Source of the DNA: Reclinomonas americana ATCC 50394
Lineage: Eukaryota
Reading direction: 5' to 3'
DNA length: 32,238 nt
NCBI GenBank assembly: GCA_048213135.1
Contig: PS015720.1
Span: forward strand, 11,810 to 44,047
Each line of letters opens with the position of its first letter. The first letter of the stretch is position 1. Positions 6,242-24,474 of this stretch are shown one piece after another. Both the position numbers and the translations under genes were made by a program. Under the pieces are notes generated by a model, which was not told the origin of the DNA, made no database searches, and was given only the letters and a program-made list of their open reading frames with translations.

Positions 6242-9200
6242 TTAGATTGCGAAATGTCGAGCTGCTGTGCTTCCGCCAAACGACGATCGGCTGCGCAATC
6301 TTTGCAGCACGGGCGCAGAGCCAGCGATTGCTGTTGCTGCTGGCGCTGGCGCCGGCTTCAAACCGGGTGAGCCCATCGAACCGCGCGACAAACTCGAGCC
6401 GGTGCGCATGAGAACACTGGCGACGGTTCCGGATCGCTTCACCAACTCTGGTCGAGTCAGTGAGGAGGCGCGCCGAGCCATCAGCAAATTGCTGTTGCTG
6501 CGAGTCTTTGCCAGGGACTCGGCCAATCGGAAGACATCATCGGCTGCCGGGTCGCTTGTCGGATCCCTTTGCCCGGTGGCCACCGAGCTCCGGGAGCGCT
6601 GGCGCTGCAGCCGACCGGCCTCGATGCGATGCCGATCGTCGATGCACCGCTGGCGCAACAATTCACGCTCGACTGGCCCGAGGCCTGAGGCGCCGTCGTA
6701 CTGTGCGCCCGACAATTCCAGTCGATACCCCTCGGTGCTCCACAGCAAGCGCGCGTGCGGGATAAAGAGGCTCGGCAGCGATCGATCAGCTGGTGTGGTA
6801 TTCGCCGCGTGCGCCGCCACTCGCAACGCCGCGCTAATGTCCCAGCAGCGCACGGTGCAGTCCTCACCGCCCGTGTACAGCATGCTGTCGTTGTCGAGTG
6901 CCAGAGCCATGGTGTTGATCTCCTGCGGCGTCACGAGCAGAGTGCCGCATGAGCGGCACTGCGAGCCAGTCGAGAGGTCGAATAGTCGCACAGTGCGATC
7001 CGCACTGTACACACGAGTGTCAGTGCGCATCTGATGCACGGGAGAATGCAGGTAGGTAGGGTGCGTACCTGCCGGTGAGGAGCCATCGACCACATCGTGA
7101 GTACACCACCGCTCGAACTTCGTCGGTATGCGCTCTCTTGGCTCGGAACAGAGCATCGCCAGTGGCCGCCGACCAGAAGCGGATGCTCTTGTCCCAGCTG
7201 CCGGCGGCAACCAGTGCGACTGAATCGGGAGAGAAGGCAATCGCCAGCGCCTGGCGAGTGTCGGCACGCAGCGCTTGTCGGCACGAGTACGTCTCCGTGT
7301 CCCTGTGTACCAGAAGGTGTGCGGATCAGTGCACACCGACAATAAAAAAAAAATACATGCAATGAGTGTGCACGTGAGAGCGGCGAACCAGATGCGAACA
7401 GTGGCGTCCTTGCTGGCCGACGCTATCCATTGACCGTTCGGCGAGTACGCCACATCCATCACCCAGTCCGAGTGACCGCCACTCATCGCATCCATGACGG
7501 CGACTTCCTCGTGACGTGCCACCGACCACACACGCACGGCACCGTCCGAGCCGCCAGACAGCACAAACTGGCCGTCGGGTGCAAATCGCACGCTGCGCAC
7601 GTGAAGCAGCAATTGGTCAGACAACTATTCAACTGCAGAGTGAAACTCACGATACGCACCAGTACACACGGCCTGCGTGCCCGCGAAGTGACCAGATGGC
7701 CTGCCCATTCAGCACGTTCCACAGACGCACCATGCCGTCGTCGTACCCGGCCACTGCTGTGAGCTGATTTGGTGCGCACTCGATGGCATTGACGCGACCG
7801 CCATGGCTCTGTTCCCGAATGACGCGGACCAATGCACCAGTGGCTGTCTTCCACACTCGAATCGAGCCGTCCCAGCTGCACGACACCGCCAGACGCCGAT
7901 CACACGTCAACGACACGGCACGCACGGGGCCCGTGTGTCCCTCTCCTCGCGTCACAGTTTCTCCACCAAACAAATCATGCAGCCGCACAGTCTTGTCCTC
8001 GGAGCCCGACACCAGAATGCTGCCATCGTGCGAAAAGGTGACACTGGTACGTGCAGACAATATGTCAGAGAATACACATACATGCAATGCAGTCTATCAG
8101 TCGGGGCCTTGCGTACCAGTTGACAGTGTCGGTGTGCGTCTCGATGGTGGTGATCAGACGACCGGTACCAGTGGACCACAGTCGAATCGTGCGATCGCTG
8201 GCTGCCGTGCCCACAAATCCATCGACCGCAAACTGAATATCGTGCACCGCACCTGTGTGTCCCTCCAATCGCGTGCGCACAGTGGCCACTGTGCCGACGG
8301 TGCCCGAATGCTGCAATTCCACACTCGTATCCCACAACATTACCAAGCTGCGGTATGTGTNNNNNNNNNNNNNNNNNNNNNNNNNNNNNNNNNNNNNNNN
8401 NNNNNNNNNNNNNNNNNNNNNNNNNNNNNNNNNNNNNNNNNNNNNNNNNNNNNNNNNNNNNNNNNNNNNNNNNNNNNNNNNNNNNNNNNNNNNNNNNNNN
8501 NNNNNNNNNNNNNNNNNNNNNNNNNNNNNNNNNNNNNNNNNNNNNNNNNNNNNNNNNNNNNNNNNNNNNNNNNNNNNNNNNNNNNNNNNNNNNNNNNNNN
8601 NNNNNNNNNNNNNNNNNNNNNNNNNNNNNNNNNNNNNNNNNNNNNNNNNNNNNNNNNNNNNNNNNNNNNNNNNNNNNNNNNNNNNNNNNNNNNNNNNNNN
8701 NNNNNNNNNNNNNNNNNNNNNNNNNNNNNNNNNNNNNNNNNNNNNNNNNNNNNNNNNNNNNNNNNNNNNNNNNNNNNNNNNNNNNNNNNNNNNNNNNNNN
8801 NNNNNNNNNNNNNNNNNNNNNNNNNNNNNNNNNNNNNNNNNNNNNNNNNNNNNNNNNNNNNNNNNNNNNNNNNNNNNNNNNNNNNNNNNNNNNNNNNNNN
8901 NNNNNNNNNNNNNNNNNNNNNNNNNNNNNNNNNNNNNNNNNNNNNNNNNNNNNNNNNNNNNNNNNNNNNNNNNNNNNNNNNNNNNNNNNNNNNNNNNNNN
9001 NNNNNNNNNNNNNNNNNNNNNNNNNNNNNNNNNNNNNNNNNNNNNNNNNNNNNNNNNNNNNNNNNNNNNNNNNNNNNNNNNNNNNNNNNNNNNNNNNNNN
9101 NNNNNNNNNNNNNNNNNNNNNNNNNNNNNNNNNNNNNNNNNNNNNNNNNNNNNNNNNNNNNNNNNNNNNNNNNNNNNNAGCGAATGTACGCTGGCCTCGT

Positions 9201-12200
9201 GGCCCTGCAGTTGTCGCTCCTCTTGACCGGTGATGTAGTTCCACAGCACAATGAGGCAGTCGGCACTGGCGGAAGCCAGACGTGTCGAAGACGGGTTGGG
9301 GTCGTACAGAACGACGAGCACACTGTCCTCGTGGGCGCACAGGGTTTTGCCGCACGCCGCTTCACTGAGTTGCCAGATGCGCACCTTGCCGTCGTGGCAG
9401 GCTGTTGCCACCTCGGCGCCTGCAGTAATGAACAGGGTGAGCGACAAAAGTCAGACTCTCAGTGCGGAGTACACACACACACGCACCGTCTGGCGACATG
9501 TCAATGTCGTGCACACTGTTGGGATGCAACAGGCACGGCAACTCCTGGAACTCTGCGTCGTCCATGTGCGCGTTGCAGAGGGAGGCGTGGCGGAGAATGG
9601 CATTGTGGAAAATTACGCCCTCCAAGTGTGCGTCGTCCAACACCACCGAGTCCATCATGGCGTGCGACAGGTCGGCGTCGCGAATTGAGACGCCATGCAG
9701 GTCGTGCCCGGCAAACGAGAAGCGCGCAATGTTGAGAATGGTAATGGCGTTGGCCGCTGTCATTTCCAGCTCCGGGTGCTCCCTCGACGCCACAACGAGC
9801 TCGTACAACTTTTCCGTAATGTGTCGATCCCACTGCGCCTGCTCTGCCAACAATCGCAGCACTGGCATGTGATCGGTGAGCACGTGCTGGTTGACGTCGT
9901 GGGTGAGCAGCTGCCGGCTGCGGGCGTCCTCGAGCTCCGCCGAGGTCACATTGGCGGCCTCCGGATCAATGACAAAGTCCATGCACATGTCCAGCAGCTC
10001 TTGCGCGGCGCAGTACTCGAGCACACACTTGTGTAGGAAACAGAAGCCGTCGTCGCCTCGGTCACGCAGCAGGTACTGCCAGAACAAAAAAGGTGTGAGC
10101 ATCATCGTGGCGGCTTCCGGTGCTGTAGCAGGTGACAGAGCGTACCTGGCTGAGAACAAAAGTTGCGTCGGGGTTGTGGCGGGCAGCATCCGACTGTCGC
10201 CACAGGCGCACGCAGCGACCGGGGCGGATGAAGGTGAGATCCTTGAAGAGCATAAAGGAGGCCAGGTGCTTGCAGAATGCCAGTCGCTGCTGGACTGCGC
10301 GCGGGCTAAATATCTATTGCACACACACACAACACCACATGGTCAACAACAACACCAACAACAACAACAATGCGAAAACTTATACTATGGCAGAACGCAC
10401 CCCTGCAGTGCGCAGCTCCGTCTCAATGTGGCGTTGAACGAATTCGCGGAACACGTCGCTGAGCTGCACGCGTACAATATCGTGCGTGGACGACAGCGCG
10501 AAGCGATCCATGACGCGTACTAGCATCGACAAGGTTAGCGGCTAGACATACACACATGCTTGAGTCAGCGACCAGTGAGAGAAGCAGAACGCAGCCAGCA
10601 CAGCTCACCACTTGAGTCAATGGCAACAGGCCTGGCGTGTTGTCGATACGACGACGGTACTCGTCGGCGGAGTGCCACAGTGCAAACGGTCTGCTGGACA
10701 CGTAGCGCTGTAAGAACTCATCGACCTGCGACGTCGTCAGCGGCTGCAAGATGCAGTGCGCCAGCCGCGGACGAGAGGCGGAGGAAATGGAGTGAGACTG
10801 CGGCGGCGGATGTGGCAGGTGTGATGGTCGTGTCGCGGGCTCCACCGGCTCGAAAGTCATCTGATACTGGCGCCCGAGATGCTCCCGAATGTACTCGGAG
10901 CGGCAACTGACAACCATCTTCAGCTTCCACTTGTTGAGCTGGTTGACCGCAAACAAATTGGGTGGCTCCATGCCGGCCAAGTCGTCAAACGAGTCGGCCA
11001 GCAGCAGGAACTGATGCTTGTGTCGGAGCGTCTTGATGTCGGCGTCGCTGAAGCCGTGTCGATGCAGAATGCAAGGCATCAAGTTGCCGTGCAGGTCATC
11101 GTCGTCAATGTTGGAGAGTTGCACGGCGAGCGGAATCGCCGACGAGTGGTTGGAGAGGCGATAGGAGTGCCAGGCGTCGCGCTCGGCACGCCGCAGAAGC
11201 GTGCTCTTGCCGGAGCCAGCCGCGCCCATCAGCAGCAGCACGCGGTCCTCCATGTTGCCGTCGCTGACAAACTCATTCAGCAAGTCCATGGCCTTGGCCT
11301 GGCGGTCGTCAAACGGACCGCGTGTGCCGTGCAGCGCCAAGTCCAGGTCGAGATCCAGATCGGCGGCGCTGCCAACATCGTCGGCCACCTGCCACCGTGC
11401 GTGCATGGCGGCAATCTTTTCCTCCACGGTGCGCACGATTTCCACCGGGGCCTCCGGTCGCACCAATGGTGGCGCAGCCGCGGCAGCAGCAGCAGCCTCA
11501 TCGGCAGCGGCGGCGGCAGTCGCAGAAGCGTCGTCGTCTTCGTCGTCAACAACGGTGTCTGCGGTCACCGAGGGCACACCCTCGAGTGGAGTCATGGGCG
11601 GCTGCAGCGACGACGAGGACCCAGAGGAGGAGAGTGCGCCCGCCGACGACACCGACTGGAGAAGCGACGAGAGTGCCAGCGGTGGTGGTGAATTCGGTGG
11701 TGACGATTCGGCGGCCAGCGAGCGCGGCTGGATGCGAGTTGGAGTGTCGGCGATCGACGAAGACCAGATGCCATCGTCAACGCGCGGAGGTGTACCCTGC
11801 AACACCAGCGCTCGATGCCGGCGTGGTGTAGAGTCCGGGATAGCGTACGCAATCGGTTCGTCGTCCGCGGTCCCCTCGTCTCCTGCATCCTCCCTGCTGG
11901 TGGTGTTGTTGTTGTTGCCGTAGGTGTAGTTGCCGCCACTGATGTGCATGTCGCCGTCGGCCAGTGGCACAATGTCGTCCTCGAAAGCAACCGAGCTGCG
12001 TCGTCGTTGTCGGCGGGAAGGAGTGACGGCGGTGGTGGCGGTGGTGGCGGTCACTGGCACGCCTGCCACTGACACATGCACGTCATTGATGCTCGTCTCC
12101 TCGCCGCTCGTGGTGGTGGTGTCGCCACTGGCCGTCTGCTGTGAAGAGCGGCCGACGCGGCGAGCGCGCAATGCCTGCACACCCACTGGTGACATGGGGA

Positions 12201-12797
12201 GCGATTGTCGCCGATACGGGGTGCCTCGTTGTTGCTGCTGCTGCTGCTGTTGTTGCTCCTGAGAAGCAGGCGTGGTCGCCGGCGACTCGGGATTTTCCGG
12301 GGCAGACGGCGCCGCAGTGGGTACATCTGTCGGATCCCCACTGTTCATGTGGTGCAGTAGAACTGGTGTGCCCACTCGCTCAGTGGAAATCGAGCTCCCT
12401 GACGACACTGTGCGTGCAAGAGAGGGAGAGAGAGAGAGAGGCACATCAAGTGCGTAAGCCGTGTGTGAGCTTCTCGTGCACACACGCACCAAACTGACAT
12501 GACAGCGACGATTACTCAAACGTAACATGTGCGCAAGTTGCCGATCGACACGGGTGACCCTGTTCCAGCATAACTCACATATCGTCGGTGACCAGCAGCA
12601 GGCTGCTCGTACAGCTGCGGTGTGCCGTTGCCTGCAGGCACCACCTCGTGCAGGTGCTTCAAGGCGGAAGGAGCAGTGGCAGCAGGGAGAGGATTCAGGG
12701 GAGGAAGAGGAGGAGGAGGAGGCGCGTGCGTCGCGACCAGTGGTCGCGACACGCAGCAGCCACCACCGCGCAGACGCATCACGTGTCGTGGCGCCAT
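6242..12797 (-). CDS. NLR-like STAND protein: disordered N-terminus, NACHT-type NTPase, helical/winged-helix region, pentapeptide repeats, WD40 propeller(s), conserved C-terminal tail motif
   Basis: Walker A LLLMGAAGSGKS (~11203-11238); Walker B FLLLADSFDDL (~10979-11011); sensor VVSCRSEY; winged-helix FLHKCVLEYCAA (~10005-10040); AANAITILN followed by pentapeptide repeats (9537-9757); many WD40 repeats (GHTGAVHDIQF...IRLW, SGSEDKTVRLHD, SASKDATVRIW, TGGEDCTVRCWD). Phase-consistent exons: 12797-12579, 12493-12490, 12407-10609, 10541-10401, 10313-10146, 10075-9487, 9419-gap, then further exons to the stop at 6242. Confidence 0.9.
8361..9178. other. Assembly gap inside the WD40 repeat region
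   Basis: Ns in sequence, with WD40-coding sequence on both sides. Confidence 0.99.
9537..9757 (-). repeat. Pentapeptide-repeat segment within the NACHT-WD40 gene
   Basis: Translation FAGHDLHGVSIRDADLSHAMMDSVVLDDAHLEGVIFHNAILRHASLCNAHMDDAEF shows A(D/N)Lxx-type 5-residue periodicity. Confidence 0.85.
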
Positions 12798-13302: not shown

Positions 13303-14519
13303 TCAGAACACCATCTCCATCGAGGGGGGTGCGGCTGTCGAGGATGAAGTTGCCGAGGTGGACGTCGTGGTGCCACCGGCAACGTGCGCGAGCGGCACAG
13401 ACAGCTTNNNNNNNNNNNNNNNNNNNNGTGAGCACACACAAATGGAGGGAGTGATACAACGCCACCAACAAACCGTCGCTCCTTCTTGTACTCCTTCTCA
13501 TCGTCTTCCGTGGCGAACACGGCGGGCGGCGGGCGGGCCAAGAAATCACGAGCCTCGTCCAGCTTCTCCGTCTCGGAGATACCGCGCTTCCTGTTTGTGT
13601 GTGACAAGTGTCATTAGCATCAACTCCGAACAAACAAACAAACAAACTCACAGACAAAACTCACCGCTTCAGCGGCGGCTGCTCGACCTTGACACGCGCC
13701 GCGGCAGCCATGGCAGCAGGTGACGCGCGAGCACGAGCCTTGAACATGACCGGCTGCACAAAAAAAAAAGAAAAAACGGTTCCGATGAGCGGGAAAAAAT
13801 CCTCGCAATGCTCGCGACTGAAATGGGTGAAAACGCACCTTCTGATCCTCGCAGCTCATGTACTGCTGCTGCTGTTGCTGCTGCTGGTGATGGTAGTAGG
13901 CGGCAGCAGCGGCGGGGTTGGCGTGGAGCGACCAGTCAATCGCGCCAAACGAGACCGATTCCGGCGGCATGTAAACTGCCTGCTGCTGCTGCTGCTGGTG
14001 CTGCGGCACAGGCAGCGGCGGCGGCGGCACCTGCTGCTGCTGGAAGTGCACCGGCACCTGCGCACCACTAAAGTGGTTCTGCTGCTGCTGGTGGTGCTGA
14101 TGGTGCAGCTGCGGCGACGACACGGGCGACGACGACGAATCGGCGTCTGACACGGCGGCGCTGTCGGGCGACGACGACGGCAGCACGTGGTGGTGGTGGT
14201 GATGCTGTTGGTGGAAGCGGTGGTCACACGGAGCCGACTGCTGGTGTTGCCCCGCAAATCCCACGACCGCGGGATACCCAGAGGAACCGGCAGCGGCCGC
14301 AGCGGCCGCAGCAGCAGCCGCAGCAGCACCAGCGCCTGCGTTCATGGGCTGTGCGTAGCTCTCAAAGTACGCATCACTGTCGTCGTGTTGGTGGTGGCTG
14401 TGGTGGTTGTGATGATGATGATGAGGGGAGCAGGGAGCAGAGGGCGGATCAAAGGCGTCCAGGTCGACCTCGCCAAAGGCCGTGGAGAAGACCTCGTGCG
14501 AGGAGAAGAGAGCGTCCAT
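13303..14519 (-). CDS. Probable bZIP-type transcription factor with a His/Gln/Ala-rich N-terminal region; basic-zipper core presumed inside the 20-N gap
   Basis: Phase-consistent exons 14519-13839, 13753-13665 and 13590-13474 give ...VKVEQPPLKRKRG...ATEDDEKEYKKERR, resembling the lead-in to a bZIP basic region (EEKxxKRxRR-xxxNRxSA). After gap 13408-13427 a frame reads KLSVPLAH...MEMVF* (stop 13303-13305). The diagnostic N-x7-R motif and leucine heptads are not visible. Confidence 0.5.
13408..13427. other. Assembly gap (20 N, true size probably unknown)
   Basis: Ns in sequence. Confidence 0.99.
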
Positions 14520-14641
14520 TGTGGTGAAAGAGGGCACGCTCGGAAAACGGTTGTGCGTTGGTGTGTATTGTGTGGCGGGCGAGGTGTGCGCGCGGCGAGG
14601 CGAAAAGTAAAATTGACCCCTGCCACGCGGCAGACTAAAAA

Positions 14642-14663
14642 TAATTTCGCCGCGCGACTCACA
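14642..14663 (+). promoter_or_regulatory. Second copy of the shared upstream motif (TAATTTCGCCGCGCGACTCACA), about 125 bp upstream of the bZIP-like start
   Basis: Reverse complement of 13055-13075 apart from one inserted C. Confidence 0.4.
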
Positions 14664-15121
14664 CGAATTGTTCGGATTTTGGTCGTTTTCTCGTTGCATC
14701 TCTCTGTCTCACACACTGCTTGTCATGTTATCAATTTAAAGTAGAAGGGAGGAAGGAGTAGCAGATTCACCATCAGGTGTTGTCTGCTGCCTGTTGTTGT
14801 CCGCGATTCGGCGAAGCAGCTGATGCATTTTGCCCGCGGTCGGCCCGCGGGTTTTCCGGGATAGGAATTGCGGCAGAATGCGCGCCGCTCCATTCTTGTC
14901 GTCGCCTGCTTCCTCTGTCCCAGGATGACGGGGATTCTGCGGATGGAAGGGCGTCTGGGAGAATGCCCCTTTCAGTTGCTCCCAGTGAGGGCGGCGGCCG
15001 ATCATGAGCGATACGGACGGTGCACCGCGTGGCGAATCGTGGCACCCAGCGAGAAAACAAAACAGACGCGGAGAAACGGCGGGGGGAACGCTGCGCAGCG
15101 GTCGAGGAATCCATTGTACCT

Positions 15122-16725
15122 TCATCTGAGACACAGCTCGTCGCCACCNNNNNNNNNNNNNNNNNNNNNNNNNNNNNNNNNNNNNNNNNNNNNNNNNNNN
15201 NNNNNNNNNNNNNNNNNNNNNNNNNNNNNNNNNNNNNNNNNNNNNNNNNNNNNNNNNNNNNNNNNNNNNNNNNNNNNNNNNNNNNNNNNNNNNNNNNNNN
15301 NNNNNNNNNNNNNNNNNNNNNNNNNNNNNNNNNNNNNNNNNNNNNNNNNNNNNNNNNNNNNNNNNNNNNNNNNNNNNNNNNNNNNNNNNNNNNNNNNNNN
15401 NNNNNNNNNNNNNNNNNNNNNNNNNNNNNNNNNNNNNNNNNNNNNNNNNNNNNNNNNNNNNNNNNNNNNNNNNNNNNNNNNNNNNNNNNNNNNNNNNNNN
15501 NNNNNNNNNNNNNNNNNNNNNNNNNNNNNNNNNNNNNNNNNNNNNNNNNNNNNNNNNNNNNNNNNNNNNNNNNNNNNNNNNNNNNNNNNNNNNNNNNNNN
15601 NNNNNNNNNNNNNNNNNNNNNNNNNNNNNNNNNNNNNNNNNNNNNNNNNNNNNNNNNNNNNNNNNNNNNNNNNNNNNNNNNNNNNNNNNNNNNNNNNNNN
15701 NNNNNNNNNNNNNNNNNNNNNNNNNNNNNNNNNNNNNNNNNNNNNNNNNNNNNNNNNNNNNNNNNNNNNNNNNNNNNNNNNNNNNNNNNNNNNNNNNNNN
15801 NNNNNNNNNNNNNNNNNNNNNNNNNNNNNNNNNNNNNNNNNNNNNNNNNNNNNNNNNNNNNNNNNNNNNNNNNNNNNNNNNNNNNNNNNNNNNNNNNNNN
15901 NNNNNNNNNNNNNNNNNNNNNNNNNNNNNNNNNNNNNNNNNNNNNNNNNNNNNNNNNNNNNNNNNNNNNNNNNNNNNNNNNNNNNNNNNNNNNNNNNNNN
16001 NNNNNNNNNNNNNNNNNNNNNGACAGAAGCACGCCTGGAGGGAAGACGCAACGGTGGATGGTGCTGCTGCTGCTGCTGCGGAGGAGGCACATACAGTCCA
16101 CTACCGTCACCACCCATCGGCGCCTGCACCGGATACGGCGACACCGCAGGTCTCGCCTGCGCGCGATTCATGCTCTCCAACTGCCTCTCAATATGCGCAC
16201 GCCCACTGGTCACCGACATCTACCAAGCAACGACATCATCATCATCATCATCCGACCACGACGACAAGCAGCAGACAAGACCTCGGATCGTCGCGCGATA
16301 ATGTGCGGCGACTCTGCAAACTCAGTGTCGTCCAGCTTCAGCAGCTCCTCCACCGCCTGCCGCGTCGACATCTCCAGCACAAAGGTCTTGAAGTTCTGAA
16401 TGTCCACAAAGCTTGGCAGCCAACACGACAATGAGTCGCGATGAGCGAGTGATTGCTCTCACAGACACAGGAGCGCACCTGTACGAGTCCACGACAAAGC
16501 CGCCTCCCTCACACGCAGCATCCACTGCCGACTCCACATACACCACAAACACATCGTCGGCCACGTCAATGCTCACACGCGAGAAGCGAATGGTGCGCGA
16601 CAGCACCTGCGCGTGTGTGAGACGCACACGCAGGGAGAGAGAGAGAGACGCACACAACACGCAACATCATCGTCCAGCACACCGGAAGGCGGCGGCACAG
16701 CCTCTTCCTCAGTCGCCGCAGCCAT
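15122..16725 (-). CDS. Multi-exon protein with a divergent N-terminal RRM-like domain followed by a Pro/Gln-rich region; 3' part lies in a gap and the end is uncertain
   Basis: Phase-consistent exons 16725-16666, 16606-16479, 16411-16282 and 16219-gap give RTIRFSRVSIDVADDVFVVYVESAV...SYSFVDIQNFKTFVLEMSTRQAVEELLKLDDTEFAESPHIIARR, whose pattern parallels RRMs such as U2AF65 RRM1 (FLEF.s.......lDG..F....L.I.R). The stop at 15122 is tentative. Confidence 0.5.
15149..16021. other. Assembly gap (N run)
   Basis: Ns in sequence. Confidence 0.99.
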
Positions 16726-16928: not shown

Positions 16929-16948
16929 NNNNNNNNNNNNNNNNNNNN
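16929..16948. other. Assembly gap (20 N) between divergent genes
   Basis: Ns in sequence. Confidence 0.99.
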
Positions 16949-17958: not shown

Positions 17959-20900
17959 TCACTTGCGCGTTGCGCGTGTGGATCGACGCGCTGCGGGTGC
18001 GCTCTTTTCCACCACCTTTGGCTTGCTGTTCCTAGTAGTCGCCGCAGTCTTTGACGGCTTTGCGGCAGCCACCGCCCGCTTGCCACGCTTCTCCGTCTTC
18101 ACGGTCTTCGCCTTGCTCTTCTTGCCCTTGGTCGGCACATCGTCCTCGTCCTCTTCTTCTTCCTCCTCCTCGTCTTCGGTGTCGGAGGTGGACTTCTTGC
18201 TGCGCTTGAATCCAAAAGGCACTGGCGCCGTATCGCGCTTCCCTTTGCTGCTGCCGGCTCCTGCATCGTCGTCTTCATCTTCCTCGTCTGTGTCCATGGG
18301 TGCCGCTGGCGACACAATGTCCCACTTGCGCATGGGCGACGGTGCAGGCGCGTTGTTGGCCTGCTCCGTGTGGTTGCGCTCCTGTACAATGTCGTGGCGT
18401 GTGTGAGTCTCACACGCAGCTGCGTCGATGTGTATGTATGGCACGCGGCGACGCAACTCGCAACGGTGTGCGCGGCGACGGCAGCACACTCGGCACCACC
18501 GCCTGACGCAAGTCGATTTGTGGCGTGTCGGGCGTCCCTGGTGTTCCAGGCGTGCGCACAGGGGTGCGGCTCGACGGCGTCGCGCGCTGTGCATGTGCGT
18601 ATCTTCAGTATTATCTTGCAAAGCAGTAGCATACAAGAGTGCGCACTGTTACCTTCATCGCGCTCGCCGGCTTGCTGGGGGTGGCAAACGCGCCTGCGCC
18701 ACCCGCAGCCGCAGCGCCCGCTGCAGCCGTGGCTGCTGTCTTTTCTGCCCGCTCGGCCTCCTTGGCACGCTCCTCCAGCTGTCGCATATCGTACTCCAGC
18801 TCCTTTGCAAGCAGGCGATTGGAGGCCAGAAGATCTGTGCCGCAACGAGTCAAACACCAGCATCATCAACTCTCTCTCTCTCTCTCTCTCTCCCTCTCCA
18901 CCTCCCCTCCTCACCTTGCATTTCTTCGTTGTGCTCCGTGAAGAGATAGTGCAGATACTGGAGGAGATCGCGCAGGAGTGGCGATCGCTGCTGCTCCAGC
19001 AAGTGCTTCAGCTCGACGCACACCGGCACCACATATTTCATCACGCCATCCTTGAAGATGCGCGTCAGCAGCGCACGATGTCGCTCCTTGAGCGCCGCAC
19101 TGGCTGCCGCCTGCGCAGAGCCGTCTTCCATGCCGGCTGCAATGTCGTCCTCCAGCTCCATGTCGACGGCGGAGGCGGAAGAGCCTGCCGCGCCGCGCTT
19201 CCACTGCAGTCGCATGTGCTGCTCACACCGCGCCTGTCAGGTATCATGCTTTTCTGCATCGCGTAGCACAAGCGACATGCAGACCTTGGTGGAGAGAATG
19301 TAGAGGCCGTCCTTGGCCACATCGTACATTTCGGCCAGAGCGTCGGCCGGATCACGGCTCTCCATCTGCGCGAGTCATTCAGTGGCGACAACGGCAACGC
19401 ATCACCAGCAACAGACACGTGCCTGTGCATTGTGCATGCTGTCAACCAGGGTGTTGAAGACGTTCTCCAGTAGGTGCTTGCACGTGCCGAGGCGGTCCTC
19501 GGGAGTCATGCGCGACAAGAGGCAGTCGTAGATATCGTGGCGCGTTCTGCGGCGTGATGGCGAATGAGAAGGAAGCAATCGGGGCGCCACTCGGCAGCAG
19601 ACAGTGGCGTGCAACTTTTCGTGTTCGGCGCCCACCAAGGCAAACCGATGTGCATCCGCACTCCACTCGTCATCCTTGTGGGCGGCCAGCTGGGCGTGGC
19701 AGCGGTTCTGATTGAAAAAGTACACGGTCTCCACAAACACGTTCTCGAACAGCTTCGGACGCTTCTCCGGGAAGCGTTCAAGCAGTGCATGTGATGCTGC
19801 GTATGGAAGGAGGGGAAGATGAGGAGAAGAAGACAAGCAGCGATAATCGTGACATCCACCGAGCACAACCAACCGAGTGCGCGCACTGCTGGCGACTCGT
19901 CAGTGAGCGCAAAGATCAGCCGGTGGAACAACTGGTGGTTGTTGATCTGGAGTGCGACAAGCGATCAGCACAGGCTGAGAGTGATTGCAACACAGCAGAC
20001 TGTGACGTACCTTCACGTAGTCTTGCAGCACCAGCTGCGCCAGAATCACAAAGCACTCCTTGCGAATGACGGCATTCTCGTGCAGCAGGCACAGCGTGAT
20101 TCCGCTCAAATAGTTGTCCACCACCGACGTGAAGCTGGAGAAATGGTGATGTTAGTCACGCGCACATTAGTGTACAACCACACACAAGGTCATACTTACC
20201 GAATGCACAAATCACCGAGCACGACAAGAATGTTGCTGATGACAGCCACGGGTGTGTCGGGCTCACGCAGCAGCATGTTGAAGAGTTTGACAGTCTGGTT
20301 GGCCAGGTCCTGGTTGGCCAGCGAGGCCTTGCCGACAGCAAGCACGGCGTGAGCACGAATGCGCTCGGGCACGGGAACACTCGACAGAGTCTGCGCTCTC
20401 TACGTCAGATCAAGTGGTGGCGGGCGCGCGCGGTGCAAGAGTAAGACAACAGACCTCGCCGCTATTGAGGTTAAAGATGGGCAGGGTGGCGGCTGTGAGT
20501 GCCGTCAGCTTGCTTGTCAGCTCCGAGTAACGGGCGCGCTGGCCGCTCTCACTCTGCACGCACACACACACTGCTTGTCAAGACCAGCGCAAGAGGCTGC
20601 TGTGAGAGAGCGTTTCCACCACACACGCATACCAGCAGCAGCTCGCCCAGCAAGAAAATGCGCGAGGCAAAGGCAATCTCGGCCGGTGTGTCGTTCTTCA
20701 TCACCTCCTCAAAGTCGCCGCACTCCAGCCGCTCGCCACGGACCACGTGCTCCACCTCACTCTGCACACCGCACACACAGTAAATCAGCCACCAATTCTT
20801 TCCCCTAACCGTCGCATGCACGCAACTTCGCAGAGCGCGGAAAGATCGGCGGCCCACGACTTGGCAAACGGCTCAAAGTCGGCACTCAAGTGCTCCATGC

Positions 20901-23900
20901 ACACTCGTTGCACGCACGCCACCATGCTCGGCGCAATGTTCGGGTTGGCACGACCGTACACCAGCGACTGGTAGAGTTGTGCTGCAGTATTTTGATGGTG
21001 AGGTCACGCACCCTCCTCAACAGTCACCAAAAGCACATCAAACGAAACTCGCCAACTCCTGTGCCCCGGCCTTTGGTAAGCGCTTCACGCCATGCGTCAG
21101 CACATGCAGGCAGCTCTTCATCTCAAACATCGGCATCCCATCGGCCTTGTCGAATGCACCGAGTGCCGGCCACAGCTTATTCAGCACCGCACCAGCCTCA
21201 ATCACTTGTGCGTTGTGTTCGGCGATTTGCTCGAGCAGTACCCAGAATATCTGCAGACAGGGCGCGTGGATGAGTGAACAGGGAAAGGTAAAGACATACA
21301 GGCAAGCAGTTCTGCTCACCCTTGACAATGGGTTGGTCTCGAGTGCTCGCATAGCGGTGCGCACGAGCTGCTTGAGATTGCTGGCATGTTGCGGCTCTGA
21401 TTTCTTCGAGTTGAGCCAGTGTGCAATGATGCGACGTGCCGAATCGAGATGAGCGCTGCAAACAGAGTGTGTGAGGTGGAAAAAGTACACAAAAGTCGAC
21501 TGAGATCGCGAGGACGCACAAGTTGGTGCTGAGAATCGTGGTCAGTGCGTCACGCAGCAGCTCTGGCACAGCATCGCTGTGGGCACGAAACACACACGAG
21601 TCAGCGAGCTGCTGCAGGGTGGAGCGAAGAAAACGATGGAACACAAGGACACACCAGTTCTCCAGCAGCATGTCGCGCACGCACTGTCGCACACGCTCCT
21701 GCACACTGTTCTCCACGTCGCCGGCACGGCCGAGCACGCCTGGTGGAGTACGGTGAAAACAGTCAGCAATGACGCGAACAGCACTCTGCGGCAACAGTCA
21801 ACGCAGATAACCTTCGGCCCAGTTACCGGCCAGCTCGGCGGCAGTGAGTGGTGCCTCCTGATTCGCCGCTGCCGGCTGCTTGTGTAGCCACTCGGCACAT
21901 GCGCGGACGGCATTGTCCAGCGACTGCACGGCCTGCACTCGCACCGACGTGGCCGCATCCATGGTACGCTCCTGAATGGCGGCAAATGCTGCGCGCCACA
22001 ACGTCGAGTTGCCGATGGCATGTCCGTGGCACGACGGCACAAGTGAGGCCAGCAACTGCACGGGTTATGTGTCAGCACTAGCAGGAGGCATGCACAGAAC
22101 AGTGGCCGAAAAACAACAAGCGCACCTCAACCACCGACTTGCGTACAGCCGCTCCAGGATCCTGAGCACGATCCATGATTTGCTCGAGAATGCTGGAGGG
22201 CGAGTCGCGCTGTCCAACCAACTCTGTCATGGGTGGAGAATGTCACAAAAAGTCAGGCCCACAGCGCACAGAGAACACCCATCGAGAGAAAACATGACAG
22301 CATATCTTCACACACAGTGTCGTCCTTGTGCGCCAGCTGGATGCACTCGGCCAACATCTCCAACGCCTTGCCGCGGACGGCACCAATCTGTGATTCGGAG
22401 TGGTCAATAAAAGCTTGAGGCGCAAGCACGCTTGCAGCCAATGAAGAGACGCATACCTTGTCGCAGATGCGCTCCACCACGCACTCGAGGAGCGATCGGA
22501 TGAGTTGCACAATCGCCCCTCGGCGTGTGCCGAGGCCCGCAAACGTCGCAATCAGCTCACCACTCAATTCCACTGCCAGCTGCCGACTCGTGCTCTGTGC
22601 GTCCATTGCACTGTCAAGCAGATGCCCAATCACACGGCTGATGCTCTCACTACGGACCTTGGTGTTCTTGGCCAGGCGTGTGACAAAGCCGACAAACCGG
22701 TCCACGGCCGCCAACTTGGCGGTGGAGACTGGCGACGCAACCTCGGCTGCAACTGCCGCCATCACCTCGTCCTCATCCACACTTTCCTCCGCTGCTTCCG
22801 GCGACGGCTCAAGACCCGCACACAGAATATCTTGCACCACCGCCAAGCAGGGTGCAATCAGTGCGCGTCGCATCTCTTGACGCTCGGCCGGACGCATGCA
22901 GAGGTGCTGCAACATGATTCCGAGGCTGTCGAACCAGGCAGTGACCAGCGACGGCTTGCCGGCATTGCTCTTGCTGCTGGCCGCTGCACTTCCCGCACCT
23001 TCCTCCTCTCCATCCTGCTGCTGCTCCTGCACTCCCTCCATCGCCTCCGGTTGCTGTGCTTGCGTCTGCGAAACGCCTCTGCGTGCAGCAGCAGCAGCAG
23101 GTGTCAGGAAAACACCATCGGGGAATGGAGCAGTGTGAGCGTGCATGCGCAACTGGAGAAACGACATTGCCTCGCGGTACACGTCGCTTCTCGCACTGCT
23201 GCCGGCCAGTGCCGTCACCAAGTGCTTGCACACCAGTCCGAACACTGCGGCGCTCGGGTTGCCGTCCACCAGTGCCTGCAGCACACTGAAACCGCTTTGC
23301 ACAACAGTGGCCGGTCTGTGCGCACGCAGAAAAATCCCATGAGACTCTCAGAGGCGTCGAATGGCTGCCTCTCTAAGGTACGCACAGATTGGTCTGCATG
23401 ACCGCGTCAATCAGCGTGTCGCACAAATGATCGGCAAACTCCTGCGCGTCGGCAAATCGCAGTCCACCTCGCGCCAAGTCGCGAATGGCCTGCAAGATGA
23501 AACACAGACGGGCTTCCAGCACCTCTGGATCCACCGGCTGCATCGTGCATGAGTCACCGCATGCCACCCACAACTGCACCCCCTCTTGCTCACCTCGTCG
23601 ATGGTGTCGTCGCCACCAGCGCTCTCATCCTCGGCGGTCTTGCGCTTTTTGGTTGCCCGACCTGCTCCAGTTTCGGCGCTCCGTTTGCCTGCGCGACAAG
23701 TCACTCGCAGGTCAGCACTGACATGCACATGCCACCAGCTGCCTCCATCAACACCTTTCTTGCCCTTGCGGCGCGACATGGACGGCCCGAGTGCTCCCAA
23801 TGCGCCCGCCCACTGCGGCAATCGCGACAGCACCTGGCGCAGCAGAAACGTGTCGTGCCACCGATACACCTTGCCGACAATCAATGAGCCTCAACAGACA

Positions 23901-24474
23901 ACTCCACACCCCACATACACACACGCACACACACATACCATTGCGCCCGGCAACGCCACCATGGCCACATACGCGGCCGCCGCGTTGACTTGCACACACA
24001 GATCCACTCGCGCCACACTATCGACTCGCCCCCGCACAGTCAGTTCACGACACTCACCGTCACAACTCCACCAGCGCACGATTCACTCACCCTCGCGCAC
24101 ACGCCGACAGCACCCAGCGCAACGATCCCAACTCGATCACCTCCTGCAATCGCTCAAAGCACGCCCACTCATCGCTCTGCTGCTGCTTCTTCAGCGCCAC
24201 TCTAGCCGCATCGTACGCCATGTCGGCCAGTTGCTCCATCACAGCCGCCGGCACATCCAACTCCACACTGCCGCGCTCCTCGGTCATTGCTGCTGATGAT
24301 GATGAAGATTGATCATGAAATGCGACTTGTTACCAACTGACGACACACACTCGTGTATGGCGCTAACTCACCTCCCTCTCCACCACTCTCGGGCACCACT
24401 CCCTCGCCCAGTGCACTCAGCAACTCCAGTGCCACCTCGCCAAGTGCCGTGATCACTTCGTCGCCCTCCGCCAT
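17959..24474 (-). CDS. NCAPD3: Condensin II complex subunit D3 (CAP-D3), HEAT-repeat/Cnd1-domain protein with many exons
   Basis: Spliced motifs characteristic of CAP-D3: VRAHAVLAVGKASL...ISNILVVLGDLCIRFTSVVDNYL...CLLHENAVIRKE...LVLQDYVK; LFHRLIFALTDESPAVR; LFENVFVETVYFFN; IYDCLLSRM; VVPVCVELKHLLEQQRSPLLRDLLQYL; LAKELEYDMRQ; C-terminal SPMRKWDIVSP; DK...VRGKAL and DAATSVRVQAVQSL HEAT motifs. Start ATG at 24474 is inferred; stop at 17959. Confidence 0.92.

Follow-up and report, generated by a model that had tools for sequence, protein, structure and literature searches.

A single gene encoding a NACHT NTPase followed by pentapeptide and WD40 repeats was found in a 32,238-nt stretch of DNA from Reclinomonas americana ATCC 50394 (assembly GCA_048213135.1, contig PS015720.1, positions 11,810 to 44,047), which is referred to here as the window and numbered from its first nucleotide. 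The coding span of this NOD-like receptor (NLR)-like gene, as read from open reading frames (ORFs), splice joins, and coding potential, covers positions 6242 to 12348 of the minus strand, and every exon, intron, and domain of the gene described below lies on that strand. The gene is genuine and nuclear, belongs to a GC-rich (approximately 60%), intron-bearing eukaryote, and encodes a signal transduction ATPase with numerous domains (STAND) that belongs to the NACHT-pentapeptide-WD40 family. The window is part of a scaffolded draft contig and contains five runs of N, at 752-1294 (543 nt), 8361-9178 (818 nt), 13408-13427 (20 nt), 15149-16021 (873 nt), and 16929-16948 (20 nt), the second of which lies within the WD40 region of the gene. 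Outside this gap, 959 codons are visible before and 608 after it, and the total of 1567 is free of in-frame stops once eight introns are removed. The gene terminates with a TAA stop codon at 6244-6242. The codon-usage score, trained on homology-backed exons, was positive in the ORF frame solely below approximately 12430, and another frame is coding further upstream; the ATG at 12348 was therefore taken as the probable start codon. An initial description of this DNA, the first-pass annotation, had ended the gene at 11340, but the coding frame and the coding potential run on for approximately 1 kb beyond that position to this ATG.

The eight introns, all of the GT-AG type, were predicted from the nucleotide sequence and the stop-to-stop ORFs and measure, in order, 67, 87, 70, 67, 73, 67, 86, and 64 nt. 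Seven of them shift the reading frame; the 87-nt intron is frame-neutral yet holds an in-frame stop, and the frame-2 ORF terminates inside it, at 10382-10380. Once the eight introns are spliced out, a single frame is restored and the relatives align across the junctions without gaps. Exon 1 (12348-10609) was defined by its ORF and splice-site reading and is followed by intron 1 (10542 to 10608, GTGAGC..AG), across which the frame shifts while the relatives align without a gap. Exon 2 (10401 to 10541), which encodes the helical part after NACHT (PLTLSML...), and exon 3 (10146 to 10313) were delimited by ORFs, splice sites, and alignment and are separated by intron 2 (10314 to 10400, GTGCGT..AG). 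Intron 3 (10076 to 10145, GTACGC..AG) leads to exon 4 (9487 to 10075), which carries the winged helix, a helical linker, TAANAITILN, the pentapeptide repeats, EFQELP, and the first strand of WD40 blade 1, and intron 4 (9420 to 9486, GTGCGT..AG, phase 1) lies inside that blade. The part of exon 5 before the gap (9179 to 9419) holds blades 1 and 2 and the beginning of a third (WD40, 41.4 bits). After the gap, exon 5 resumes at 8360-8117, and ORFs and splice sites place the remaining exons at 8043-7660, 7592-7389, 7302-7069, and 7004-6242, with the post-gap introns at 8116-8044 (73 nt), 7659-7593 (67 nt), 7388-7303 (86 nt), and 7068-7005 (64 nt).

Exon 4 breaks off within WD40 blade 1, which is continued in exon 5; by the logic of the sequence, NACHT and the WD40 repeats would therefore form one transcription unit. 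The donor site reads GTGCGT or GTACGC (consensus GTRCGY) at six of the eight introns (10400-10314, 10145-10076, 9486-9420, 8116-8044, 7659-7593, and 7068-7005), and these donors, together with the intron lengths of 64 to 87 nt, may provide a usable splice-site signature of the host. The base composition of the gene is host-like, with GC contents of 0.64, 0.50, and 0.73 at the first, second, and third codon positions (GC3), respectively, and a GC3 of 0.67 to 0.72 in the neighboring ORFs that are likely to be coding. The first-pass annotation had called the gene fully intronized and had used its introns to argue against bacterial contamination. The argument holds and the composition agrees with it; the intronization is seen in the eight predicted introns, with part of the gene hidden by the 818-N gap.

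The encoded protein consists, in order, of a low-complexity N terminus, NACHT, a winged helix, the AANAITILN helix, pentapeptide repeats, FxELP, at least 11 WD40 blades, a cap motif, and a tail rich in S and R. A Pfam scan of eight ORF pieces found a family in seven of them, the 53-residue piece of exon 2 being without one. NACHT (PF05729) scored 28.4 bits against a cutoff of 26.7 (E value of 1.7e-6), Pentapeptide (PF00805) scored 31.6 bits against a cutoff of 20.2 in exon 4, and WD40 (PF00400) was found in all five downstream pieces at 28.1 to 89.0 bits. All three families thus exceeded their Pfam cutoffs on the ORF pieces, and every element of the architecture that had been listed from the letters alone is present on the minus strand. 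Family hidden Markov models (HMMs) built without the window protein matched the NACHT exon at an E value of 9.7e-48 and exon 4 at 7.1e-48.

The motifs were called from an alignment of the window protein with nine relatives. The N-terminal 336 residues (11341 to 12348) are of low complexity, rich in A, S, P, T, and D, and include a poly-Q run. The NACHT NTPase forms the end of exon 1 (10609 to 11340) and contains Walker A as GAAGSGKST (11226-11200), Walker B as LLLADSFDD (11010-10981), and the sensor-1 arginine in SCRSEY (10914-10891). In Walker B, the family reads DGYDE, and the window protein has G replaced by S and E by D, with the Walker B aspartates kept. A 17-residue P-rich insert in NACHT (10851-10765) is peculiar to the window protein among the aligned relatives. 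The winged-helix motif FCFLHKCVLEYC (10045-10010) keeps F.H...LEY. Further downstream, TAANAITILN (9760-9731), the pentapeptide run (approximately 9715-9548), and EFQELP (9553-9536) are all in register with the nine relatives. The WD40 region, which directly follows FxELP...SPDG as in the family, comprises two blades and the start of a third before the gap and, after it (6839 to 8360), nine blades preceded by the last part of another, spread over five exons. The C-terminal cap motif WSTEGYRLELSGAQYDGASGLGPVERELLRQR (6647 to 6742) was recognized by an HMM of the relatives only (E value of 1.5e-7), and the C-terminal string quoted at first, LELSGAQYDGASGLGPVERELLRQR (6721-6647), is part of it. 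Its family consensus is ...LCWSSTH..LTVSGASIEGVQGLS..NKRLLKQRGA, with the pattern ...WSS...L.V.GA...GA.GLS.....LL.QRGA. After the cap, as placed by the motif and the ORF, the protein continues with a tail of 133 residues rich in S, R, and A, which together with the stop codon occupies 6242 to 6646, whereas the median length after the cap in the relatives is 13 residues. The last 135 residues matched neither a Pfam nor an NCBIfam family, and no HET domain was found by Pfam in the ORF pieces or the N terminus.

The elements of this protein recur together in other proteins. The NACHT exon (282 residues) was compared with 1.84 billion representative proteins, which gave 905 matches at an E value of ≤1e-3, 356 at ≤1e-10, and 1 at ≤1e-30, with 34% identity for the best match. 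The mid module (winged helix, AANAITILN, pentapeptide, and FxELP) followed NACHT in 88 of the best 150 of these matches, and the cap motif was detected by HMM in 140 of the 181 stored family proteins that reach 1200 residues or more. Only 11 proteins matched a strict regular expression for this motif, and the HMM was used in its place. As judged by these searches, all four signature elements are traits of the family, and the set marks one family as the first-pass annotation had proposed. An Atlas search with the NACHT exon returned generic bacterial NACHT clusters only, and exon 4 alone found no match in a word-index search, in which the alignment of the mid module (A1) later succeeded as the query.

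Among bacterial and archaeal genomes, A1 identified 210 candidate stretches, of which 185 were confirmed, and 77 loci were kept. These were mostly from metagenome-assembled genomes (MAGs) of Mycoavidus cysteinexigens, with additional loci from Gammaproteobacteria MAGs, a Tatlockia sp., and one Myxococcales bacterium. In the protein collection, A1 matched 217 proteins. The named proteins among the 120 listed of these belong to Mortierellaceae (Mortierella, Linnemannia, Entomortierella, Modicella, Dissophora, Gamsiella, Haplosporangium, Benniella, and Gryganskiella), Mycoavidus, and Glomeribacter. The carriers expected at first reading were therefore recovered for Mortierellaceae, Mycoavidus, and other bacteria, Glomeribacter included, but not for ciliates, which were absent from the named matches among the best 120 of the 217 proteins. 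Likewise, no account of the NACHT-pentapeptide-WD40 type in a protist or ciliate was found in the literature collection searched, the supplement of Kibby et al. (bioRxiv 10.1101/2022.07.19.500537) not being covered. Within the 32-kb window, the family HMMs found no second copy of the gene. Five relatives (P0001, P0002, P0004, P0053, and P0104) contain two NACHT stretches in a single polypeptide, or three in one case, and some of them have two mid modules as well. Either whole units have been fused in tandem in these proteins, or gene calls were merged.

The spliced NACHT-to-pentapeptide module (548 residues) aligned end to end with 200 of the 279 stored proteins or ORFs. Identity reached at most 28 to 30% over approximately 575 amino acids (E values of 1e-59 to 1e-51) and was about level for Mortierellaceae, Mycoavidus, and unnamed proteins. 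Of 107 unnamed module-bearing proteins, 78 are at least 50% identical to named proteins of Mortierellaceae, Mycoavidus, or Glomeribacter, 14 are 40 to 50% identical, and 15 are less than 40% identical. A quick tree of 58 rows placed the window protein with bacteria other than Mycoavidus (Shimodaira-Hasegawa-like approximate likelihood ratio test, 100). This placement is untrustworthy and was dropped because the approximately unbiased (AU) test found a better tree with the window protein held on the other side, by 17.37 log-likelihood units (p-AU, 0.764), and a position as sister to the clade of Mortierellaceae and Mycoavidus was not rejected (P = 0.764).

A more careful tree was built from 30 rows and 524 columns under LG+C20+F+G4 and was left unrooted. 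Mortierellaceae and Mycoavidus formed a clade with supports of 100/100, and the window protein fell outside it, on a backbone that the tree leaves unresolved, so that the phylogenetic check of the NACHT and pentapeptide parts proposed at first reading gave the exclusion from this clade but not the sister group. Its branch measures 2.68 changes per column, compared with a median of 0.93. The nearest row by path is a bacterial protein (P0017) encoded by an uninterrupted ORF at 35 to 41% GC, with SecB 19 nt downstream. The Mortierellaceae formed a clade (99/96) that was nested within the Mycoavidus sequences, an arrangement that agrees with the exchange between endosymbiont and fungus proposed in print, although the unrooted tree gives no direction to it. 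On this sequence evidence, the window gene represents an independent lineage within the family, one that branches deeply and has evolved fast, and the data name neither a donor nor a direction. Ancient residence or an old transfer, as suggested earlier, would agree with both the composition and the long branch. A Mortierellaceae fungus is a very unlikely host for the gene, in view of the identities of 28 to 30% to all Mortierellaceae copies and the tree position outside their clade.

We also compared the WD40 blades and N terminus of the window protein with those of the family. Blade identities were obtained by crude splitting with regular expressions, by which 8 of 11 chosen proteins could be processed. 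The eight post-gap blades of the window protein had a median pairwise identity of 31% and a maximum of 45%. Among the bacterial relatives, the blade medians reached 79% and 71% for two proteins of Mycoavidus, 74% for one from a Gammaproteobacteria MAG, and 67% for P0017. Elsewhere in the family, heterogeneous blades occur in a Linnemannia protein (P0247, median of 29%) and in an unnamed protein (P0047, median of 27%). The homogenized WD40 arrays (67 to 79%) were observed in L001 (Mycoavidus MAG), L050 (Gammaproteobacteria MAG), P0199, and P0017.

At the N terminus, nine of the best 12 NACHT matches, and also P0103 and P0024, carry the ARM_5 domain, whereas Pfam found none in residues 1 to 336 of the window protein. 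This alpha-solenoid domain corresponds to NLR_Helical in Wojciechowski 2022 (PMC9815663). ARM_5 was also absent from four of the five bacterial N termini scanned, and these four were without any Pfam family. By these scans, ARM_5/NLR_Helical is common in the family but not universal. The fifth bacterial N terminus (L053:2539-4695, Gammaproteobacteria MAG) showed a DUF294 putative nucleotidyltransferase domain (E value of 2e-6).

The closest known systems are the NACHT-PPR-WD40 NOD-like receptors, which Ciach et al. 2024, Evol Lett (PMC11291939), describe as common to Mortierellomycota and Mycoavidus. The window protein shares their module order from NACHT through the C-terminal cap motif and is collinear with them over approximately 575 amino acids. 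In contrast, it is only 28 to 30% identical to them, lies outside their 100/100 clade, lacks ARM_5/NLR_Helical, and has the 17-residue P-rich insert and the 133-residue extra tail, and its gene resides in a GC-rich host and is split by short introns.

The bacterial NACHT (bNACHT) anti-phage proteins described by Kibby et al. (bioRxiv 10.1101/2022.07.19.500537) share the NACHT core and a C-terminal repeat sensor with the window protein; there, the pentapeptide repeat is among the bNACHT-associated domains and the homologues from fungal endosymbionts are put in clade 18. The same module occurs in the bacterial carriers (Gammaproteobacteria, Tatlockia, Myxococcales, and P0017), whereas the window gene is eukaryotic and intron-split, and the PADLOC defense models match it no further than the P-loop. 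With Podospora HET-E, HET-D, and NWD, the window protein shares NACHT and a WD40 sensor, and their role in non-self recognition provides a functional analogy. However, it lacks a HET domain and has the pentapeptide module between NACHT and WD40. The WD40 repeats of the fungal HET-E/NWD type are highly internally conserved, that is, homogenized, whereas the blades of the window protein (median of 31%) are not. For animal NLRC4, the match is made by the family profile and covers the NACHT NTPase core only. A family profile (A2) made from the window protein and 29 relatives had the NLRC4 NACHT as its best solved match (E value of 3e-6) and matched NLRC4 chains at E values of 3e-6 to 3.1e-5; the NACHT exon of the window alone matched no solved chain at an E value of ≤0.01. 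NLRC4 has LRR repeats and a CARD, whereas the window protein has pentapeptide and WD40 repeats and a low-complexity N terminus.

Beyond the gene structure, domain order, intact motifs, and family membership described above, we propose, with moderate confidence, that the protein would act in NLR-like sensing, as a ligand-triggered, nucleotide-driven, oligomerizing STAND switch that most probably detects non-self. An ADP-bound NACHT would be kept closed by the WD40 propellers, the pentapeptide beta-helix serving as a rigid spacer, until a ligand bound at the propellers freed it. ATP would then replace ADP at the intact Walker A/B site, and oligomerization through NACHT and the winged helix would bring the N termini together to relay a signal. 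Because the 336-residue N terminus is of low complexity and is not a known effector, the output would most likely be achieved by recruited partners or by self-association of the N terminus itself. The most probable role would be the detection of a microbe, a virus, or foreign cytoplasm, and an immune role for the window protein is plausible. To our knowledge, no member of the NACHT-pentapeptide-WD40 type has been functionally tested. Across this protein class, immunity or non-self recognition is the most frequent role. According to Kibby et al. (bioRxiv 10.1101/2022.07.19.500537), bacterial NACHT proteins defend against phage, and the fungal HET-E/D proteins mediate non-self recognition and heterokaryon incompatibility.

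Several observations weigh against the proposed sensing function. The blades of the window protein are without homogenization, so the repeat-shuffling hallmark of the fast-evolving fungal and bacterial receptors is absent. The NACHT score is barely over the Pfam cutoff, compared with 53 to 92 bits in the relatives. PADLOC 2.0.0 gave matches at the level of the P-loop only, with the NACHT exon matching PDC-M16A (E value of 3.5e-4) and Avs2 (E value of 9.6e-4) and exon 4 matching nothing. The output step is a guess, as neither a Pfam nor an NCBIfam family and no effector domain was recognized in the N-terminal 336 residues. In addition, the 818-N gap falls inside the gene, so that the blade count is a lower bound and the frame is read only outside the gap; the long branch could also reflect relaxed constraint or a changed function; and the gene model, splicing included, is a prediction.

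Part of this evidence would also be explained if the protein had been domesticated for a nonimmune job, as a regulatory or scaffolding STAND switch of fixed specificity, with its propeller frozen and its effector replaced by disordered tails. The mutual divergence of its blades (median of 31%), set against the homogenized arrays of four bacterial relatives, agrees with this explanation, as do the missing ARM-like N-terminal domain that is common in the family, the lineage-specific low-complexity extensions at both termini, and the failure to find a second copy in the 32-kb window. However, heterogeneous blades are also present in P0247 (29%) and P0047 (27%), a single 32-kb window is uninformative on the genome-wide copy number, and all NTPase and family motifs are kept, as one would expect if the switch still worked in the ancestral manner. 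We regard such a nonimmune role as a possible but distinctly less probable account than NLR-like sensing.

The long branch raises a further explanation, in which the gene is a decaying or nonfunctional relic of an old transfer, or is broken within the gap, and the branch length records relaxed constraint. Consistent with decay are the very long end branch with its odd letter makeup, the borderline NACHT score, the 818-N gap inside the gene, and one unusual donor site (GTTCGC). Nevertheless, the 1567 visible codons remain without an in-frame stop after the removal of eight introns, every catalytic and family motif is retained, the splice junctions lie exactly where the alignment to the relatives requires them, and the codon-usage score is positive along the gene, so that a relic appears improbable. 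Contamination of the assembly by bacterial or Mortierella-type fungal DNA, which could be suspected from the bacterial or Mortierellaceae origin of the nearest relatives and from the bacterial nature of the nearest row (P0017, SecB 19 nt downstream), is very hard to reconcile with eight spliceosomal-type introns, best identities of 28 to 30% over the module and 34% for the NACHT exon among 1.84 billion representatives, a composition resembling that of the neighboring intron-split ORFs, and a tree position outside the 100/100 clade of Mortierellaceae and Mycoavidus, and it is very unlikely.

For the NLR-like sensing protein preferred here, the question of origin is addressed by published work on the family and its relatives. 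NLR-like STAND receptors are thought to have moved from bacteria to eukaryotes several times, according to Kibby et al. (bioRxiv 10.1101/2022.07.19.500537), and in Ciach et al. 2024 (PMC11291939) the NACHT-pentapeptide-WD40 type is described, among eukaryotes, only for Mortierellomycota, beside their endosymbiont donor or partner. A speculative scenario, which we consider rather doubtful, is that a nonfungal microbial eukaryote long ago acquired, in an event of its own, a bacterial NACHT-pentapeptide-WD40 receptor, possibly from an intracellular, Legionellales-like or other associate; a Legionellales-like donor is suggested because Tatlockia and Gammaproteobacteria carry relatives. Full domestication would then have followed, with the gain of at least eight introns and a host composition, the loss of repeat homogenization and of the ARM-like effector, and the acquisition of disordered tails that signal, for example, by condensate-like or prion-like self-association. 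This would be a second, independent eukaryotic domestication of the receptor beside that in Mortierellomycota.

The architecture, its sharing between Mortierellomycota and Mycoavidus, and the bacterial combination of NACHT with pentapeptide repeats are already known, and what is new is a very divergent, intron-split member and an added host lineage. A very divergent copy, rich in introns and adapted in composition, would widen the host range of the family to another eukaryote. The window gene would also offer a case for the study of late domestication through intron gain, loss of repeat homogenization, and effector replacement, and it is a candidate for asking whether such receptors take part in immunity in unicellular eukaryotes. 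As an addition to the family it is incremental, and its interest lies chiefly in a possible second domestication of such receptors by eukaryotes.

The remainder of the window was examined for neighboring genes, and Rfam found no family in it. Directly upstream of the NLR-like gene, the ORF at 13623-14708 (minus strand, 362 codons) has a good coding score and encodes P0267, a low-complexity protein that is rich in H, Q, and A and matches no Pfam family. This ORF probably represents a gene of its own, separated from the NLR-like gene by approximately 1.2 kb of apparently noncoding sequence. A hidden upstream ARM exon was ruled out here, since this ORF is H/Q-rich and in another frame, with a noncoding stretch between. 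Further along, a chain of ORFs with a positive coding score (approximately 18000-24330, minus strand) resembles a multiexon gene for a HEAT/ARM-repeat protein. For P0268 (22256-23347, 364 residues), no homologue was found, and Atlas gave only generic eukaryotic HEAT/ARM look-alikes. A Pfam scan of 175 neighboring ORFs produced a single subthreshold match, to which a relaxed rescan of nine pieces added nothing. This match, to condensin subunit 1 (Cnd1), lies in the piece at 19903-20151, with an E value of 6.8e-5 and a score of 23.4 bits against a cutoff of 26.4.

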